This document shows, piece after piece, positions 14,329 through 51,149 of a DNA stretch of 64,000 bases. Source of the DNA: Patescibacteria group bacterium (lineage in GTDB: Bacteria; Patescibacteriota; Patescibacteriia; Patescibacteriales; UBA12465); contig JAVEZP010000001.1 in assembly GCA_034002925.1 (NCBI GenBank), forward strand, positions 209,165 through 273,164, in the 5' to 3' direction. Every line of letters starts with the position of its first letter. Position 1 is the stretch's first letter. Under the pieces are notes generated by a model. It ran no database searches. It was not told the DNA's origin and saw nothing but the letters and a program-made list of their open reading frames with translations. The position numbers and the translations under genes were made by a program.

Positions 14329-14710
14329 GGGGATGTCGGGTATCGATAATGACGACTATTTCTAGATATTCAAAACGGGTTTGAGCTAAACCGTAAAAAT
14401 AGTTCAAAAATATACATGCCAAAAACACTGGCCGAGCATTTACCTGGAAAGTTCCAAGTTTTGCTCCTGTTATGGCTTAATTTAAAGCCGTAACCATCAG
14501 CCTGTTGTCGCTTCAGCGATAGGTACTGGTGTCATATTTGAAGCTTTGCTAAAACTTGCCCCCTTCAAGTTTTATCAAGAAAAATAGGGGTGGTCGTTTT
14601 CGCTTTTGTTCGGTTTCTGATGATTACGACGACAAATATAAATCGAACTAATTTTGTAAAATTATCTAGAAAATCTTATTAGACATGGGTTCAACTCCCA
14701 TCATCTCCAC
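14329..14710 (+). ncRNA. ssrA: tmRNA (SsrA), one-piece
   Basis: The 5' GGGGATG pairs with the 3' CATCTCC. T-arm GGGTTCAACTCCC. Candidate tag ORF GCC..TAA at 14418-14480 encodes AKNTGRAFTWKVPSFAPVMA. Starts 2 nt after the smpB stop. Confidence 0.88.
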
Positions 14711-14720
14711 TTGTTTTAAT

Positions 14721-27982: not shown

Positions 27983-30393
27983 TATTAACAGTTTTTATAA
28001 ACAGCCTATGAATATTTATTTTAGAGTTATTAAACTTAAGCGGTTATGAGATAATTTGCTTTTTTGCGATTATTTTGAACCGCGGCTTACGCGGTTTTTT
28101 GAACCCTAAAATAATAATTTAAATACGACCTCATCTTTAGCAGCTTGCTGGTAGAGATGAAAAAATATTTAAATGACCTTTAACAGTTGAATAAAATTTT
28201 GTCGCTTTTAAGGTAAAAGCGAATTTCTATCGTCGGTTTATTTTGCAATTTCCGGGCGATAGAAAAAAATCGCACTTGCGAAGAAGTGCGTCCACTTTTG
28301 AAAACAAAAGTGTGGGAAAATCTCGTAAAGAGTATATGGCGGATGCCTAGACATAAGAAAACGATGAAGGACGTAGCAGCCTGCGATAAGCTGCGGTGAG
28401 GTGGCAAGCAACCTTTGACCCGCAGATCTCCGAATGGGGAAACCCCCTTCGTTGCAAACGAAGGTACCGTTGCTTTTTGGTGACGGTAGAAGACCCGGCG
28501 AACTGAAACATCTTAGTAGCCGGAGGAAAAGAAAACAATAGTGATTCCCTAAGTAGTGGCGAGCGAACGGGGAAGAGCCTAAACTTGTCGGACTGAGATT
28601 TCAAGCCAGCTTGCTGGGGAGAAATCAGAAGGTTCTAGAACCATATGTTCCACAAGGGTTGCAAGACAGCATGTCTGTTATCTAGATTTAACAGAGCAGA
28701 GTCATAAAAAATAATTTTTAGCAGAAGCGAGCTGGAAAGCTCAGCCAGAGAGGGTGATAGCCCCGTAAGCGAAAAGAATTATTTCTCTGCCGTGCTTGTT
28801 CTTAAGTAGTGCGGGCCTCGTGAAATCCCGTATGAATCAGGGTCGACTATGACCCAAGGCTAAATATTTCTTATGATCGATAGTGAACCAGTACCGTGAG
28901 GGAAAGGTGAAAAGCATCCCGAGAGGGAGGTGAAATAGTACCTGAAACCATATACTTACAAAGAGTCGGAGCCCAGTTTACTGGGTGACGGCGTGCCTAT
29001 TGAAGAATGAGCCAACGAGTTTGTTCTATGTGGCTTACATAATCTCCTCCGGAGAGTATGTGTAGTGAAAGCGAGGGTTAATAGCCCGCATTGTGCTTCG
29101 CTTTTGCGCATTAAGCAATTAGTGCGTCAAGAGCGAAGTACACGTCGCATGGACAAGACCCGAAGCCGGGTGATCTAACCATGTCCAGGTTGAACTCTGT
29201 CGAAAGACAGAGGAAGGACCGAACCCACGAGCCGTGCAACACTCGGGGATGAGATGTGGTTAGCGCAGAAATTGTAATCGAACTCGGCAATAGCTGGTTC
29301 TCCTCGAAATAGTTTTTGGACTAGCCTCGAGCGCTGATTACGGGGGGTAGAGCACTGGATGAGGGCGGGTCTTCGGATACCGTCTTCAATCAAACTCCGA
29401 ATACCCGTAAATGTAGCTCGGGAGTCAGACCATGGGCGCTAAGGTTCATTGGTCAAAAGGGAAACAGCCCAGATCACAATCTAAGGTCCCTAAATATATG
29501 CTAAGTGTAAAAGGTGGTGTTGTGACCGCGACAATTAGGAGGTTGGCTTAGAAGCAGCCATCCTTTAAAGATAGCGTAATAGCTCACTAATCAAGTTGTT
29601 TCGCGCCGAAAATTTACCGGGGCTAAGCATATTACCGAAGATGTGAACTCCATAATTTATTATGGAGTGGTAGAGGAGCATTCTCTTCAGCGTTGAAGTC
29701 GTGTCGTGAGGCATGGTGGAGCGGAGAGAAGTGAGAATGTTGGCATGAGTAGCAAAAAGGCGGGTGAAAATCCCGCCCACCGAAAATCTAAGGTTTCCTG
29801 GGCAACGAGAATCGCCCCAGGGTTAGTCGATCCTAAGGTGTAACTAATGTAGTGTTAGTGTAACCGATGGAAGAGCTGGTTAATATTCCAGCACTGCTGT
29901 GTTTTTCCGATGGAGGGACGCGGCTCTAAAGTTTGAGCGGGCTATGGTATGTCCGTTGAAGATTTCAAGAAACGGCCTAGGTAAATCCGGGCCACCAGTT
30001 TCAAGGAATAGCCAAGAGATGAAGTCGCAAGATGGATTCAATTCAAGTGGCAGAGCTGACAAGAAAAACTTCTAGGGTTAAGAACATGGCAATCGTACCG
30101 TAAACCGACACAGGTAGATGAGGCGAGGAGCCTAAGGTGTACGAGAGAACCTTCGCTAAGGAACTCGGCAAAACAGCGGCCGTAATTTCGAGATAAGGCC
30201 TGCCCTGCGCAAGCAGGGCCGCAGCTAAAGAGCTCAAGGGACTGTTTATCAAAAACACAGCTCTCTGCTAACTCGCAAGAGGATGTATAGAGGGTGAAGC
30301 CTGGCCAGTGTCCGAACGTTAAGAGGAGAGGTTAGCACTTCGGTGCGAAGCTTTGAATCCAAGCGCGGATGAACGCCGGCGATAACTATAATC

Positions 30394-30446
<53 letters not shown>

Positions 30447-30933
30447 TTAACCACTTGAGCACTGTCTCAGCGAAGGACTCGGTGAAATTGCAAGACGAGT
30501 AAAGATGCTCGTTAACCACAGTCGGACGAGAAGACCCCGTGAAGCTTTACTACAGCTTGATATTGAGTTAGGGTTATGCATGTTCAGTATAGGTGGGAGC
30601 CTTCGGGCGCCAGTGAGATACCACCCTTGTATATTCTTAATTCTCACCCCGTATTTCGGGGGACAGTGTCTGGTGGGTAGTTTGTCTGGGGCGGATGCCT
30701 CCCAAAAAGTAACGGAGGCGTTTACAAAGGTTGGCTATCCCGGAATGGAAACCCGGGAGATAGTGTAAAGGCATAAGCCAGCTTTACTGCGAGACTTACC
30801 GGTCAAGCAGTCGCGAAAGCGGAACTTAGTGATCCGACCATTCAATGTAGGATGGTGGAAGCTCATCGGATAAAAGCTACTCCGGGGATAACAGGCTAGT
30901 CGCGCCCAAGCGTCCACAGCGACGGCGCGGTTC

Positions 30934-30966
<33 letters not shown>

Positions 30967-30976
30967 GTGAAGAAGC

Positions 30977-31029
<53 letters not shown>

Positions 31030-31033
31030 CCGT

Positions 31034-31732
31034 TTAGAGGCTAAATTATTGGCACCTAAACGCTCTGAATCCAGAGGAAAGACATCAAGTACGGCGGCAA
31101 TATCAAGTAATTGATATTTGGCATAAAAAGCTGACTCATATCGATGAAGTCCTAACAGGTAATTGAAAATTAACCTGTCATATGTTAGGATAATATCGAG
31201 GGAAGTCACTTATGTTAAAATTAACGCAAACACAATTAGCTTACTTAGCAGGATTTATCGATGGTGATGGAAGTATTTATGTAAGATTAAAACCTAACAA
31301 TACCTATCGTTATGGTTTTCAGATTGCTCCTTACATAGTTCTATTTCAATCAGCTAAAGATGAAATACATTTTCAAAAAATTTGTAAATTGTTAAGTTGT
31401 GGCTATTTGCGCAAGAGAAAAGATGGAGTGTTAGAGTATACTATCGGTCGCAGAGAAGAAATATCGTCTTTAATAAAAGCTATTAAACCATATTTAATTC
31501 TCAAGCGAAGACAAGCTGATTTATTAGAAGAAATTTTTAGAAGAAAAGATTTGGTAAAAAACGCTAAAGATTTTTCTCAATTAATGAATCTAATTAATAA
31601 GTTTGCTGATATAAATTATTCTAAAAAACGCATCAAACATAAGTTGACCCCGTAGAGACTAAACGTCGGCCTCCTGAAAGTGTTTCAGGATGAAGGTATA
31701 GTCCATGCATTTAGTAATAAATGAATAACATG
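31034..31732 (+). mobile_element. Group I intron in 23S rRNA domain V (E. coli U2593/C2594-equivalent site)
   Basis: The exons GGGTTCAGACCGT | CGTAAGACAGGTCGGTC rejoin to match the E. coli sequence GGGTTTAGAACGTCGTGAGACAGTTCGGTC. The 5' exon ends in T and the intron ends in G. The 3' core has AGACTAAACGTCGG, a P8-like CCTGAAA/TTTCAGG stem, and TATAGTCC. Confidence 0.85.
31212..31655 (+). CDS. LAGLIDADG homing endonuclease, single-motif I-CreI-like
   Basis: 147 aa with one LAYLAGFIDGDGSIYVRLKP motif. Aligns by eye to I-CreI (LLYLAGFVDGDGSIIAQIKP...). Lies entirely within the intron. Confidence 0.9.
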   Translation: MLKLTQTQLAYLAGFIDGDGSIYVRLKPNNTYRYGFQIAPYIVLFQSAKDEIHFQKICKLLSCGYLRKRKDGVLEYTIGRREEISSLIKAIKPYLILKRRQADLLEEIFRRKDLVKNAKDFSQLMNLINKFADINYSKKRIKHKLTP

Positions 31733-32077
31733 CGTAAGACAGGTCGGTCTCCTATCCACTGTGGTCGTGGAAACTTGAAGAGGCCCTTCCTTAGTACGAG
31801 AGGACCGGGAAGGACGAAGCTCTAGTGTACCTGCTGTTCTACCAAGGGCATTGCAGGGTAGCTACCTTCGGTTAAGATAAGTGCTGAAAGCATCTAAGCA
31901 CGAAGCTGTCTCTAAGATTAGGTTTCATAGACTGGTTAAAGATTATAACCTTGATAGGCTGTACGTGTAAGTCCAGTAATGGATTGAGCGGAGCAGTACT
32001 AATAAGTCGTTAGATTTTCCCACACTTTTGTTGATCAAATAACAAAACATTCTTCGTATATATAAAAGACACCATTG

Positions 32078-32193
32078 TTCTGGTGGTTAAAGCGGAGGGG
32101 TCACACCTGATCCCTTCCCGAACTCAGAAGTTAAGCCCTCCAGCGCCGATGATACTTGGGCCTGAGCCCTGGGAAAGTAGGTCGCCGCCAGAA
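32078..32193 (+). rRNA. rrf: 5S rRNA
   Basis: Helix I TTCTGGTGG/CCGCCAGAA. Conserved CCTGATCCCTTCCCGAACTCAGAAGTTAAGC and GGGAAAGTAGGTCGC. Flanking stem ACACCATTG/CAATGGTGT followed by T6. Confidence 0.93.
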
Positions 32194-48644: not shown

Positions 48645-49041
48645 TCACCTCTTCTTCAAGATTTTCATCCTCTTCAGCACTAACATTATATTTCTTTTCT
48701 TTTAGCATTTCCTCTTCTTCCTCGGCTTGAAGTTTAGCGGCAATTCTTAGTTTTAGCTTAACAGCTAATTCTTTAAATTGTTCAGCATTTTCTTTTTGTA
48801 AATATTTGAGTAATTTACGTCTTTCTCCTACTTTCTTTAAAAGACCGCGACGAGAAGAATAGTCATGCTTATGCTGCTTTAAATGGTCTGTTAAATTTTT
48901 AATTTCTTCAGTTAAAATAGCGATTTGTACTTGAGGAGAACCAGTATCGGTATCATGTACTCGATATTTTTTGATAATTTTTTCTTTGACTTTTTTGTCT
49001 AACATATTGTTTTCGCTTTTTCCAAGAAAAGGGAATTTCAC
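48631..49041 (-). CDS. rpsO: 30S ribosomal protein S15 with acidic C-terminal extension
   Basis: [50 protein letters not shown] is the S15 core. The likely start is ATG 49005 (MLDKK). Acidic tail of about 35 aa. Confidence 0.9.
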
Positions 49042-49072
49042 CCATTTCCGAGAAAGAGTGTATAGGGCTCTT

Positions 49073-49333
49073 TTATTTTAGAGCGTTTATTTTTTTAGCT
49101 AAACGAGATTTTTTACGAGCAGCAGTATTTTTTTTGATAACGCCTTTTTTAGCTGCTTTATCAATTTTTTTCATCACAGTATTAAAGTCTTCTTTAACAC
49201 TTTTATCACTGCTTTGCACTTTTTTTAAACTTTTTTTAACCGCTTCTTTCATGGTCTTTTTGACTTGTGAGTTAGCAGCTTCTCTTTTCACGCTTTTGCG
49301 TAGTTCTTTTTTCGCCGATTTCTTATTAGGCAT
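49073..49333 (-). CDS. rpsT: 30S ribosomal protein S20
   Basis: [16 protein letters not shown]....N...K....KK is the S20 pattern. 86 aa. Confidence 0.88.
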
Positions 49334-49423
49334 ACAAAATTAATATTGATTAAATGTATAAAGTAAGCTTAATTTATCACAAAATTAAATAAAAATCAAG
49401 ACCTAAGTCTTTATTTGTGATTT

Positions 49424-49500
49424 TGGTCGGGGTACTGGGACTTGAACCCAGAATCTCCTGCTCCCAAAGCAGGCGCCTTAGCCAATTAGGCCATACCCCG
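49424..49500 (-). tRNA. tRNA-Pro(TGG), CCA encoded
   Basis: Reverse complement CGGGGTATGGCCTAATTGGCTAAGGC-G-CCTGC-TTTGGGA-GCAGG..GGTTCAAGTCC..TACCCCGACCA. It is the only tRNA in the window with a genomic CCA. Confidence 0.9.
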
Positions 49501-49575
49501 TTATAAAGCAAAAAGCTACAAAGTTATAAAATTAAGTCGATTACTTTATAACTTTATAACTCTTTGCTTATTTTG

Positions 49576-49894
49576 TGCCCCGGGTCAGAATCGAACTGAC
49601 GACACAAGGATTTTCCTTAATCTGAGCCTAGGTTTTCCTAGGGATTGGACTATATCATCTCCGTTTTATTACAGGAATAAAGTGCGGAGTCGGGCGCTCG
49701 CGGCGGGGTTATTGTTGGGCTCACCCGCTAGTCTCTACACCTTTTTCAATCTTAAACCCGATTGAAACTTGGCTCGGGATTGCCTTAGTATTAAAATACC
49801 TTAGGTTTCCCCGAATTCACCCGATTTTCATTTCGATATTTCTATCGAACGGACCGAAAATCAGTCCTTTGCTCTACCACTGAGCTACCGAGGC
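49576..49894 (-). tRNA. tRNA-Phe(GAA) interrupted by a group I intron
   Basis: Exon 1 (49894-49863) is GCCTCGGTAGCTCAGTGGTAGAGCAAAGGACT. Exon 2 (49615-49576) is GAAAATCCTTGTGTCGTCAGTTCGATTCTGACCCGGGGCA. Joined they form a 72-nt cloverleaf very similar to E. coli tRNA-Phe. Confidence 0.88.
49616..49862 (-). other. ORF-less group I intron (IC3-like), 247 nt, in the tRNA-Phe anticodon loop
   Basis: The guide sequence GGUCC pairs with exon GGACU (U:G wobble at the splice site). UUUUC pairs with exon-2 GAAAA (P10). Core blocks GGGGAAACCUAAGG, GGCAAUCCCGAGCCAAG, AAGGUGUAGAGACUAGCGGG and GAUAUAGUCC are present. The terminal nucleotide is G. Confidence 0.85.
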
Positions 49895-49914
49895 CTGACT
49901 GAAAACATCTTTAG

Positions 49915-49987
49915 TTGCGGGAGTCGGATTCGAACCGACGACCTCCAGGTTATGGGCCTGGCGAGCTGCCAACTGCTCTATCCCGCT
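49915..49987 (-). tRNA. tRNA-Met(CAT), initiator-type
   Basis: Reverse complement AGCGGGATAGAGCAGTTGGCAGCTCG-CCAGG-CCCATAA-CCTGG-AGGTCGTCGGTTCGAATCCGACTCCCGCAA. Has a 1:72 mismatch (A:A) and A11:T24, and is close to E. coli tRNA-fMet. Confidence 0.85.
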
Positions 49988-50008
49988 TTTCTTTTTTGAG
50001 GACTCAAG

Positions 50009-50082
50009 TGGGCAATGGAGGATTCGAACCTCCGACCTCAACATTATCAGTGTTGCGCTCTAACCAACTGAGCTAATTGCCC
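50009..50082 (-). tRNA. tRNA-Ile(GAT)
   Basis: Reverse complement GGGCAATTAGCTCAGTTGGTTAGAGC-G-CAACA-CTGATAA-TGTTG..GGTTCGAATCC..ATTGCCCA. Confidence 0.92.
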
Positions 50083-50177
50083 TCAATTTACGGAAAATAA
50101 CAACAAAAAATCAGTTCTTGGCAACTTCTTGATAAAATATAACAGAAGCTGCATAAAAAAGCAAGGCTTTTTTTAGG

Positions 50178-51149
50178 CTAATTTAAATCCTGTGTTAACA
50201 AGAGATAAAGTTCGCTTTTTACATTAGTTTTTCCGCTTTTATTTTCTAAATCAACACCTAAGAGCTTTTGCCAATTTTCGGATAATTCTTCTAAAGAAAA
50301 ATTTTTACTTTGTTGCCAAGCTTTTTTGGCCACAAAAGGATGAATAGAAAGTTTTTGAGCAGCTTCTTGTTCAGTTCTAACGCCTTCTTCTTGTAGTAAT
50401 TTTACACTTAGCATGATTTTTACCTGGCGTTGCAACATGGCTAAGATGTATTCAGCACTTAAACCCGCGAGTAATTGTTCTTCAAGTAGTTTAATGGCTA
50501 AATTTTTATTTTTTGAAACTAAAGCATCAATCAGATTAAAAATATTTTCTTCTATTTCTCCCTTAACCAGCTCATTAACTAATTTTTCGGTAATCGCTTG
50601 ATTGCTAGAAGCTGCTATTAATTTATTAATTTCATTATGTAAGCGCCATAAATCATCCCCAGTTTTACTAACAAGCAGAGTAAGGGCACTAGGCTGAATT
50701 TGAGCTTTTTTGCTTTGGATTTCTTTTTTAGCAAATTGTAGTAATTGTAAATTGTTAAGAATTTTAAATTCTTGGACGTATGGTTGTTTTAACAGCCAAG
50801 TTGCTAACTTTTTTGCCTCGCTATTTAGTTTTGTTTTATAAATAGTCTCTTCATTAAAAATAATAATATTATTTTCTGGATCTTGAGTTTTTTGACTTAA
50901 ATCTAATACATAATTAAAGAGTTCTTTATTTTTATTAACAAAAATATTATTAATTACAATCATTCTTTTTTTACTAAATAATGAGCCGCTATTTATCTGA
51001 GCGCTTAATTCCTTAATGCTAATTTTTTCACCATCAATAACGCTCAAGCTTTGTCCTAGAGGATCTAAGCTGTTAATAAATTTGTCTTTTAATTCTTGAA
51101 GTTTTTGTTGACGACGAAAAGAGTCGGGTCCATGTAATAAAAAAATCAT
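50178..51149 (-). CDS. holA: DNA polymerase III delta subunit
   Basis: 323 aa with an N-terminal IFLLHGPDSF...L pattern and a helical C-terminus typical of HolA. 4-nt overlap with murI. Confidence 0.75.
   Translation of the reverse strand: MIFLLHGPDSFRRQQKLQELKDKFINSLDPLGQSLSVIDGEKISIKELSAQINSGSLFSKKRMIVINNIFVNKNKELFNYVLDLSQKTQDPENNIIIFNEETIYKTKLNSEAKKLATWLLKQPYVQEFKILNNLQLLQFAKKEIQSKKAQIQPSALTLLVSKTGDDLWRLHNEINKLIAASSNQAITEKLVNELVKGEIEENIFNLIDALVSKNKNLAIKLLEEQLLAGLSAEYILAMLQRQVKIMLSVKLLQEEGVRTEQEAAQKLSIHPFVAKKAWQQSKNFSLEELSENWQKLLGVDLENKSGKTNVKSELYLLLTQDLN

Follow-up and report, generated by a model that had tools for sequence, protein, structure and literature searches.

The 64 kb stretch of DNA analyzed here (the window) carries, on its minus strand, a tRNA-Phe(GAA) gene interrupted by a group I intron of 247 nt. 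Very probably this is a functional tRNA gene whose intron, inserted between U33 and G34 (Phe.2Ug type) and lacking an endonuclease gene, is removed by standard group I splicing and is optional. The intron boundaries are exact. The annotation is correct and represents an already known type, ordinary for Patescibacteria.

Organization of the split tRNA-Phe gene

The gene consists of the following parts, all on the minus strand.

49863 to 49894, minus strand: exon 1 of tRNA-Phe(GAA), tRNA positions 1-33, 32 nt, reading GCCTCGGTAGCTCAGTGGTAGAGCAAAGGACT and ending in ..AAGGACU33
49616 to 49862, minus strand: group I intron of the Phe.2Ug type, 247 nt, starting with GATTTTCGGTCC and ending in ...GATTAAG
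49576 to 49615, minus strand: exon 2 of tRNA-Phe, 40 nt, from G34 to the discriminator A73, reading GAAAATCCTTGTGTCGTCAGTTCGATTCTGACCCGGGGCA and starting with GAAAATCCTT

The earlier note on this DNA had placed the split at 33/34, with halves of 32 and 40 nt around an intron of 247 nt. This proved correct to the base, both from the sequence itself and from ARAGORN with option -i, which recovers the split gene with an intron of 247 nt. The predicted junction of the ligated exons is ..GGACU/GAAAAUCC.., and the 72-mer obtained by joining the halves folds, as had also been claimed, into a canonical cloverleaf that ARAGORN calls tRNA-Phe(GAA). Neither ARAGORN in its default mode nor the Rfam tRNA model detects the split gene. 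It is a member of a co-oriented tRNA cluster with the order Ile(GAU)-Met(CAU)-Phe-Pro(UGG). A scan for promoters and terminators between 48900 and 50400 was uninformative, with sites no commoner than in shuffled sequence.

The splice sites carry an ambiguity of one base, G being the first base of both the intron and exon 2, such that U/G...G/G and G/A...GG/A are equivalent descriptions of the same DNA. We place the splice site at 33/34 because, among the matches listed (see below), the intron begins with A in 19 of 94 homologues, while U at position -1 and omega-G are found in 94 of 94.

Group I identity and structure of the intron

A search of the locus with the Rfam model Intron_gpI (RF00028) gave a match at 49626-49872 (minus strand) with 87.3 bits (E-value 7e-21), above the gathering score of 50 and covering model positions 1-253, which is the full model. 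No homing-endonuclease ORF was found in the intron and no ORF of at least 80 aa overlaps it; the longest stop-free stretch within it measures 77 codons and lies on the antisense strand. The description as an ORF-less group I intron thus holds, and all core sequence blocks quoted in the earlier note were found in the intron.

We built a model of P1-P9 by hand and then compared it with the unconstrained minimum free energy (MFE) fold. Every nested helix of the hand-built model is recovered by the unconstrained fold, which reproduces P1-P9, and all helices from P1 to P10 could be placed, although the z-score of the plain MFE of the intron is only -2.5. The structural elements are given below, where intron nucleotide n corresponds to window coordinate 49863 - n.

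49851 to 49867, minus strand: P1, exon GGACU and intron G1 paired with CGGUCC (intron nt 7-12); the U33:G wobble marks the 5' splice site
49860-49856, minus strand: P10 guide UUUUC in the P1 loop (intron nt 3-7), pairing with GAAAA of exon 2 (49615-49611)
49832 to 49849, minus strand: P2 (intron nt 14-31), a 7-bp stem with a GAAA tetraloop
49824-49818 / 49696-49690, minus strand: P3 (intron nt 39-45 / 167-173), 3' strand CGCCCGA
49814-49739, minus strand: P4-P5-P5a-P6-P6a domain, with P4 at intron nt 49-53 / 85-89 and P6/P6a at 90-124
49735-49729 / 49652-49647, minus strand: P7 (intron nt 128-134 / 211-216), G(A)GACUA with UAGUCC, forming a pseudoknot
49703 to 49728, minus strand: P7.1, an extra hairpin between P7 and P3' (intron nt 135-160), GCGGG-UGAGCCCAACAAUAAC-CCCGC
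49689-49659, minus strand: P8/P8a hairpin (intron nt 174-204)
49642-49627, minus strand: P9 (intron nt 221-236), hairpin CCUAGG-AAAA-CCUAGG
To 49616, minus strand: 3' tail of the intron, 11 nt, ending in omega-G (intron nt 247)

The tRNA-Phe intron therefore has the U:G pair at the 5' splice site, the terminal G, the P10 guide and all core helices. The anatomy proposed in the earlier note for P1 (GGACU/GGUCC with U33:G), P10 (UUUUC:GAAAA) and the terminal G (at 49616) was recovered as such. P7 has its bulged A as well as the G-C pair that binds guanosine. P5 contains a motif, CCUAAG...UAAGG, that resembles the 11-nt tetraloop receptor, and together with the GAAA tetraloop of L2 it would be expected to serve for docking at the periphery. 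L9 has the loop AAAA in the tRNA-Phe intron and GNRA in most relatives, a difference that could weaken one tertiary contact. The P7.1 stretch appears as a 30-nt insertion in the Rfam alignment.

Homologous introns and covariation

A core-pattern scan of species-representative genomes yielded at least 119 loci. ARAGORN reported an intron-split tRNA-Phe(GAA) at 91 of these, and several further Phe genes were present with mis-set boundaries: shifted boundaries led ARAGORN to call several homologous Phe genes Ile, Ser, Val or Pro. When the boundaries were re-derived from the exon rules, at least 94 intron-split Phe genes resulted, the one in the window included. Among the matches listed, nearly all Phe-intron loci belong to metagenome-assembled genomes (MAGs) of Patescibacteria from many classes. 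The genome of the window itself is not among these matches; the nearest of them, L057, shares 89% identity with the window over the intron gene and about 72% over its flanks. The split tRNA-Phe type is common in Patescibacteria.

An alignment of 91 Phe introns, the window intron and 90 others from the listed matches, was made with MAFFT and used for the analysis of covariation. Over the pairs of the model, 91.2% of the cells are paired, as opposed to 34-50% when the partners are slid, and changes on both sides occur at 52 of 77 model pairs; the observed covariation values were reached in none of 500 shuffles. The core helices are nearly always paired across the 91 introns (P3 99.8%, P4 99.8%, P7 99.5%), with P4 invariant and P7 essentially so. 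The peripheral stems, P7.1 included, co-vary. Co-variation is seen at 8/8 pairs in P6a and compensatory changes at 7/7 pairs in P2, whose loop is GNRA across the family with an invariant loop G and an invariant last A.

Pairing with the exons follows the same pattern. The P1-exon positions show pairs such as GC:66/CG:24 and AU:49/CG:40, and across 92 genes the guides track their exons: GGACU:GGUCC goes with UUUUC:GAAAA, versus GCCCU:GGGGC with UCUU(C/U):GAAGA. Everything that group I splicing demands in sequence and structure is present and under selection.

A putative loop-loop contact between P6a and P7.1

The P7.1 loop contains a conserved motif, AACAAUAA. The three bases directly 5' of it (CCC in the window, 49719-49717) are the complement of those that open the P6a loop (GGG in L6a, 49759-49757). 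The MAFFT alignment mis-registers this triplet (69.5% paired), and the L6a/L7.1 comparison was anchored on the motif instead. Among the matches listed, the two triplets are Watson-Crick complements in 75 of 78 introns with a P7.1 of the window type. Exact compensation is found in nine of the 12 introns whose triplet is not CCC, with the L6a:L7.1 combinations GAU:AUC, GAG:CUC (three times), GGA:UCC (twice), GGC:GCC, AGG:CCU and GAC:GUC. When partners were permuted in 5000 trials, the mean number compensated was 1.5 and the maximum 6 of 12, versus the 9 observed. This control was restricted to Watson-Crick pairs because a permutation that allows G:U is uninformative (mean 10.3/13). Another 12 introns have a different insert of two hairpins, UCCC-GAAA-GGGA and a second hairpin, and have no GGG in the P6a loop. 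Judged from these sequence comparisons, the P7.1 loop appears to kiss the P6a loop through 3 bp. We found no description of a P6a-P7.1 contact in the searchable literature, in a search that was not exhaustive and is no proof of novelty.

Comparison with known tRNA introns

Introns with this host tRNA and at this insertion site have been recorded before. The tFind seed alignment of Williams (2020, bioRxiv 10.1101/2020.01.27.920355) contains Mba55.Phe.2Ug, an intron in tRNA-Phe at site 2 (33/34) with U-1 and G-omega, and the same work extends the four classical bacterial types (Leu.3Ug, Arg.5Ug, fMet.2Ug, and Ile2.5Ug) to 21. Table 1/S3 of Nakagawa et al. (2026, PMC13011429) lists Phe(GAA) 33/34 in Doudnabacteria GCA_016699995.1, with the sequence given, and 33/34 is described there as the well-characterized site of tRNA-fMet. 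The earlier note had not recognized a Phe(GAA) host or a 33/34 insertion point among bacterial tRNA introns, and had added that prior cataloguing of such introns would remove the novelty. Since Williams (2020) and Nakagawa et al. (2026) already record this combination, which we moreover find in at least 94 genomes, and 33/34 is the classical fMet site, the supposed novelty falls away.

The closest described introns, Mba55.Phe.2Ug and the Doudnabacteria Phe intron, resemble the window intron in host, U33/G34 site, U-1, omega-G, and the lack of an ORF. They have the same helices, including the P7.1 loop UGAG(U)CCCAACAAUAA, and are 82% and 84% identical to it over alignable columns, respectively. 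They differ in length (234 nt in Mba55 and 211 nt in Doudnabacteria, versus 247 nt in the window), in P9, which is a full hairpin in the window intron and short or absent in the other two, and in the anticodon-stem/guide pairing (GCCCU/GGGGC or CGCCU/GGGCC instead of GGACU/GGUCC).

The Asn and Asp introns of Patescibacteria, from the same phylum as the window intron, are likewise compact and ORF-less. In the work of Nakagawa et al. (2026, PMC13011429), these two are the only introns shown to self-splice in vitro. Over alignable columns, the validated Asp intron is 80% and the validated Asn intron 75% identical to the window intron, and the Asn intron has the P7.1 loop motif GUGAGCCCAACAAUAA and an AGCGCCC strand of P3 in common with it. 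Both reside in a different host tRNA and are inserted at 35/36 instead of 33/34, so that their P1/P10 guides differ as well.

Further counterparts are found outside the phylum. The intron of cyanobacterial tRNA-fMet(CAU) (fMet.2Ug) follows the universal U33 and uses the same P1/P10 logic, but it occupies another host tRNA, belongs to IC3 without P7.1, and has a long P9/P9.x extension (seed Tpc1.fMet.2Ug). The introns of Azoarcus tRNA-Ile(CAU) and Anabaena tRNA-Leu(UAA) have core strands (J3/4-P4, P6, J6/7-P7, and P7') near-identical to those of the window intron, as well as the GNRA loop of L2 and the receptor-like motif of P5, and are 73% and 78% identical to it over alignable columns, respectively. 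Their insertion sites (36/37 in Azoarcus Ile and 34/35 in Anabaena Leu) and phyla differ, and both are without the P7.1 hairpin and the L6a-L7.1 pairing.

Subgroup assignment

In the Michel-Westhof scheme, a P7.1 positioned between P7 and P3' marks an intron as IA; it does not occur in IC3. The earlier note had likened the intron to the IC3 introns of cyanobacterial tRNA-Leu(UAA) and Azoarcus tRNA-Ile, and as far as the core is concerned this likeness stands: the strands GGGGAAACCUAAG, CAAUCCCGAGCCAAG, AAGGUGUAGAGACUAG, and AUAGUCC are almost as in Azoarcus and Anabaena (73-78% identity over alignable columns), P2 has a GNRA loop, P5 the receptor-like motif, and there is no P5abc. Membership of the IC3 subgroup itself does not follow, because a co-varying hairpin of 26 nt (49728-49703), foreign to IC3, sits between the 5' strand of P7 and the 3' strand of P3. 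Closest to it are introns of the Phe.2Ug, Asn, and Lys types, which have the UGAG(U)CCCAACAAUAA loop in common. With subgroup covariance models, Nakagawa et al. (2026, PMC13011429) classed no tRNA intron of Patescibacteria as IC and nearly all as IA. We consider it rather unlikely that the window intron belongs with the cyanobacterial and Azoarcus introns in subgroup IC3. Of the IA-type extras, P7.1 is present and P7.2 absent, while the remaining core is IC3-like. An IC3-like core with a putative IA-type insertion is, on sequence grounds, a fair description of the subgroup.

Sister populations and the natural empty site

A metagenome scan revealed an intron-less junction on 63 contigs, and 41 of these also carry the Ile(GAU)-Met(CAU)-Phe-Pro(UGG) cluster. 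Those that match best show about 70% nucleotide identity to the flanking genes of the window, and BLAST alignments to the intron-less relatives break at 49615 and 49861. Closer relatives were retrieved by an exact-protein look-up with ribosomal protein S20; the same look-up with the PNPase ORF gave no match, its mechanically assigned start probably lying too far upstream.

Among these closer relatives, both of the alleles that the earlier note had suggested looking for were found. Four other samples contributed contigs (L188, L186, L191, and L192) with at least 99% identity to the window, all of which have an intron of 247 nt at this site; samples that carry the intron are ENA ERZ27247376 and ERZ27247361 and JGI 3300014206 and 3300015214. 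A base-by-base comparison of two, L186 and L184 (the latter being one contig with L188), showed no difference from the window in the split gene. An uninterrupted tRNA-Phe gene is present in L187 and L189/L183, which are about 96.5% identical to the window over 10-20 kb. The intron-less gene (L183/L185/L187/L189) equals the predicted ligated exons at 72/72 positions, and the one in L183 scores 72.4 bits against RF00005. A precise intron-less gene in a population about 96.5% identical to the window fixes the boundaries exactly and makes the intron optional at a near-species level. The earlier note had reasoned that self-splicing would be essential if this were the only tRNA-Phe gene of a reduced genome; the intron-less allele shows that the lineage can do without the intron. 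The signal of the tRNA-Phe intron is not a matter of chance either, since the unconstrained MFE fold reproduces P1-P9 and the intron-less allele equals the predicted ligated exons.

These observations also bear on whether the intron could be a decayed, non-splicing relic and the locus a tRNA-Phe pseudogene, with another tRNA-Phe gene in use. A second copy is possible outside the window, and the L9 loop is AAAA instead of GNRA. However, the elements of the catalytic core are all intact and match columns that are invariant in the 91 homologues, the guide pairs perfectly with its own exons, the exons match the functional allele without an intron exactly, and the intron is unchanged in L184 and L186. 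In addition, ARAGORN and the Rfam tRNA model found no second tRNA-Phe in the 64 kb window. We regard a relic as exceedingly improbable and retain the reading of a functional, intron-containing tRNA-Phe gene.

Within about 1.5 kb around the insertion site, the intron-plus (99%) and intron-minus (96.5%) populations differ at 2 positions only, versus an average of 3.4%. Such a low number of differences would fit a recent gain or loss of the intron. Recent recombination at the site is only suggested, because identical runs of 350-450 nt also exist elsewhere between the two populations. A tentative, comparatively improbable extension of our reading would combine a recent gain or loss of this endonuclease-less intron, by homologous recombination or reverse splicing, with its being a structural intermediate between IC3 and IA with a kissing contact.

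Proposed splicing of the tRNA-Phe intron

The splicing steps proposed for this intron follow established group I chemistry. Upon folding of the precursor, the guide GGUCC of the intron would pair with G29-U33 of the exon to form P1, placing the U33:G wobble at the 5' splice site. An exogenous guanosine, bound at the G-C pair of P7, would attack the 5' splice site after U33, and omega-G would then replace the guanosine in the binding site. With exon 2 (GAAAA) aligned by the guide UUUUC (P10), the 3'-OH of U33 would attack after omega-G, ligating the anticodon loop CU/GAAAA and releasing the intron. We infer that the tRNA-Phe intron is self-splicing, with indirect support from the intron-less allele, which equals the predicted ligated exons, and from the related Asn and Asp introns, which self-splice in vitro.

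In the cell, many group I introns depend on proteins as cofactors, and splicing of the tRNA-Phe intron might likewise depend on a host protein (such as a chaperone or an aminoacyl-tRNA-synthetase-like cofactor) instead of being autocatalytic there. The AAAA loop of L9, which may weaken the docking of L9 with P5, would be in line with such a dependence. Against this, the intron is small, compact, and ORF-less, and the additional RNA-RNA contacts (P7.1-L6a) suggest stabilization by RNA only. The related Asn and Asp introns splice protein-free in vitro (Nakagawa et al. 2026, PMC13011429). We hold a protein requirement to be highly unlikely, and autocatalytic splicing by the standard group I pathway is the reading that we prefer.

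Meaning for tRNA sets in Patescibacteria

The tRNA-Phe intron is one further instance of a documented pattern, and it opens no new question because the host tRNA and the insertion site have both been published. It adds modest value in two respects. The first is a clean empty site that occurs naturally in a sister population; it gives the exact boundaries and identifies the intron as optional. The second is comparative evidence for the L6a-P7.1 loop-loop contact. Since the gene escapes both default ARAGORN and the Rfam tRNA model, a genome of this kind would be reported without a tRNA-Phe, and recognition of the intron restores the complete tRNA set.

Proposed loop–loop contact and structural variants of the Phe intron

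In the alignment of homologous tRNA-Phe introns, the GGG of the P6a loop (49759-49757, minus strand) and the CCC of the P7.1 loop (49719-49717, minus strand), the latter capping the extra hairpin between P7 and P3', make up a triplet pairing that co-varies in 78 of the Phe introns among the matches listed. Within this same set, nine out of 12 variant triplets are exactly compensated, compared with a permutation maximum of six. No description of a P6a-P7.1 triplet pairing was found in the literature searched.

An alternative architecture also occurs among the Phe introns, in which P7 is followed by UCCC-GAAA-GGGA and another hairpin, replacing the hairpin with the AACAAUAA loop. The P6a loop of these introns lacks GGG. 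Among the matches listed, this variant is carried by loci L009, L015, L017, L038, L046, L060, L072, L080, L081, L084, L101, and L110, and additionally by L117. The P9 loop varies as well: it is a GNRA tetraloop (GAAA, GUAA, or GCAA) in most relatives and AAAA in the window (49636-49633, minus strand), as in its aligned homologues L085 and L089. The AAAA loop could weaken the docking of L9 to the receptor-like motif in P5.

Distribution among related genomes

Metagenome contigs that are at least 99% identical to the window (L188, L186, L191, and L192) contain the tRNA-Phe intron, and it is precisely absent from those with approximately 96.5% identity (L187 and L189/L183). Between the window and these intron-less contigs, about 1.5 kb flanking the intron site (about 48748-50258) shows only two differences, against a mean divergence of 3.4%. 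Recent recombination around the intron site is only suggested by this pattern, because further long identical runs were found elsewhere between the same sequences.

Several third-party MAG records with a Patescibacteria-type Phe intron are titled ‘uncultured Gammaproteobacteria’ or ‘Bdellovibrionales’ (for example, L006, L007, L014, L053, L056, L068, L079, L090, L093, L095, L105, L113, and L119; L002, L020, L042, and L084). Some loci with these titles share synteny with the window, and the labels look unreliable.

A second group I intron and other RNA genes

The window contains a second group I intron, located within the 23S rRNA gene.

Features of the rRNA region
28316-32193, plus strand: 23S-5S rRNA pair
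28316-32009, plus strand: 23S rRNA gene (local Rfam search)
31034-31732, plus strand: intron insert of about 699 nt, interrupting the 23S gene
31212-31655: LAGLIDADG endonuclease ORF within the insert (Pfam PF00961, 59.8 bits)

Rfam Intron_gpI matches the insert at 31564-31724 with a sub-threshold score of 33.6 bits. Exon 1 ends in ..GGGTTCAGACCGT and exon 2 starts with CGTAAGACAGGTCGG, at what we take to be the L2593 (I-CreI-type) site in E. coli numbering. The ‘full length’ 23S gene at 28316-31121 in the whole-window Rfam search was a forced alignment; the local search carries the gene to 32009.

The spacer between tRNA-Phe and tRNA-Pro (49504-49570, minus strand) is filled by a long AT-rich imperfect hairpin, possibly an element for processing or one resembling a terminator. 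Sub-threshold matches to microRNA precursors (e.g., let-7, 34 bits) are spurious, being drawn by this hairpin. After a tmRNA gene (14329-14712, plus strand; tag AKNTGRAFTWKVPSFAPVMA) come tRNA-Leu(UAA) and tRNA-Gly. Rfam detected no 16S gene anywhere within the 64 kb window, and the rRNA genes therefore appear to be unlinked, with the 23S-5S pair apart from 16S.
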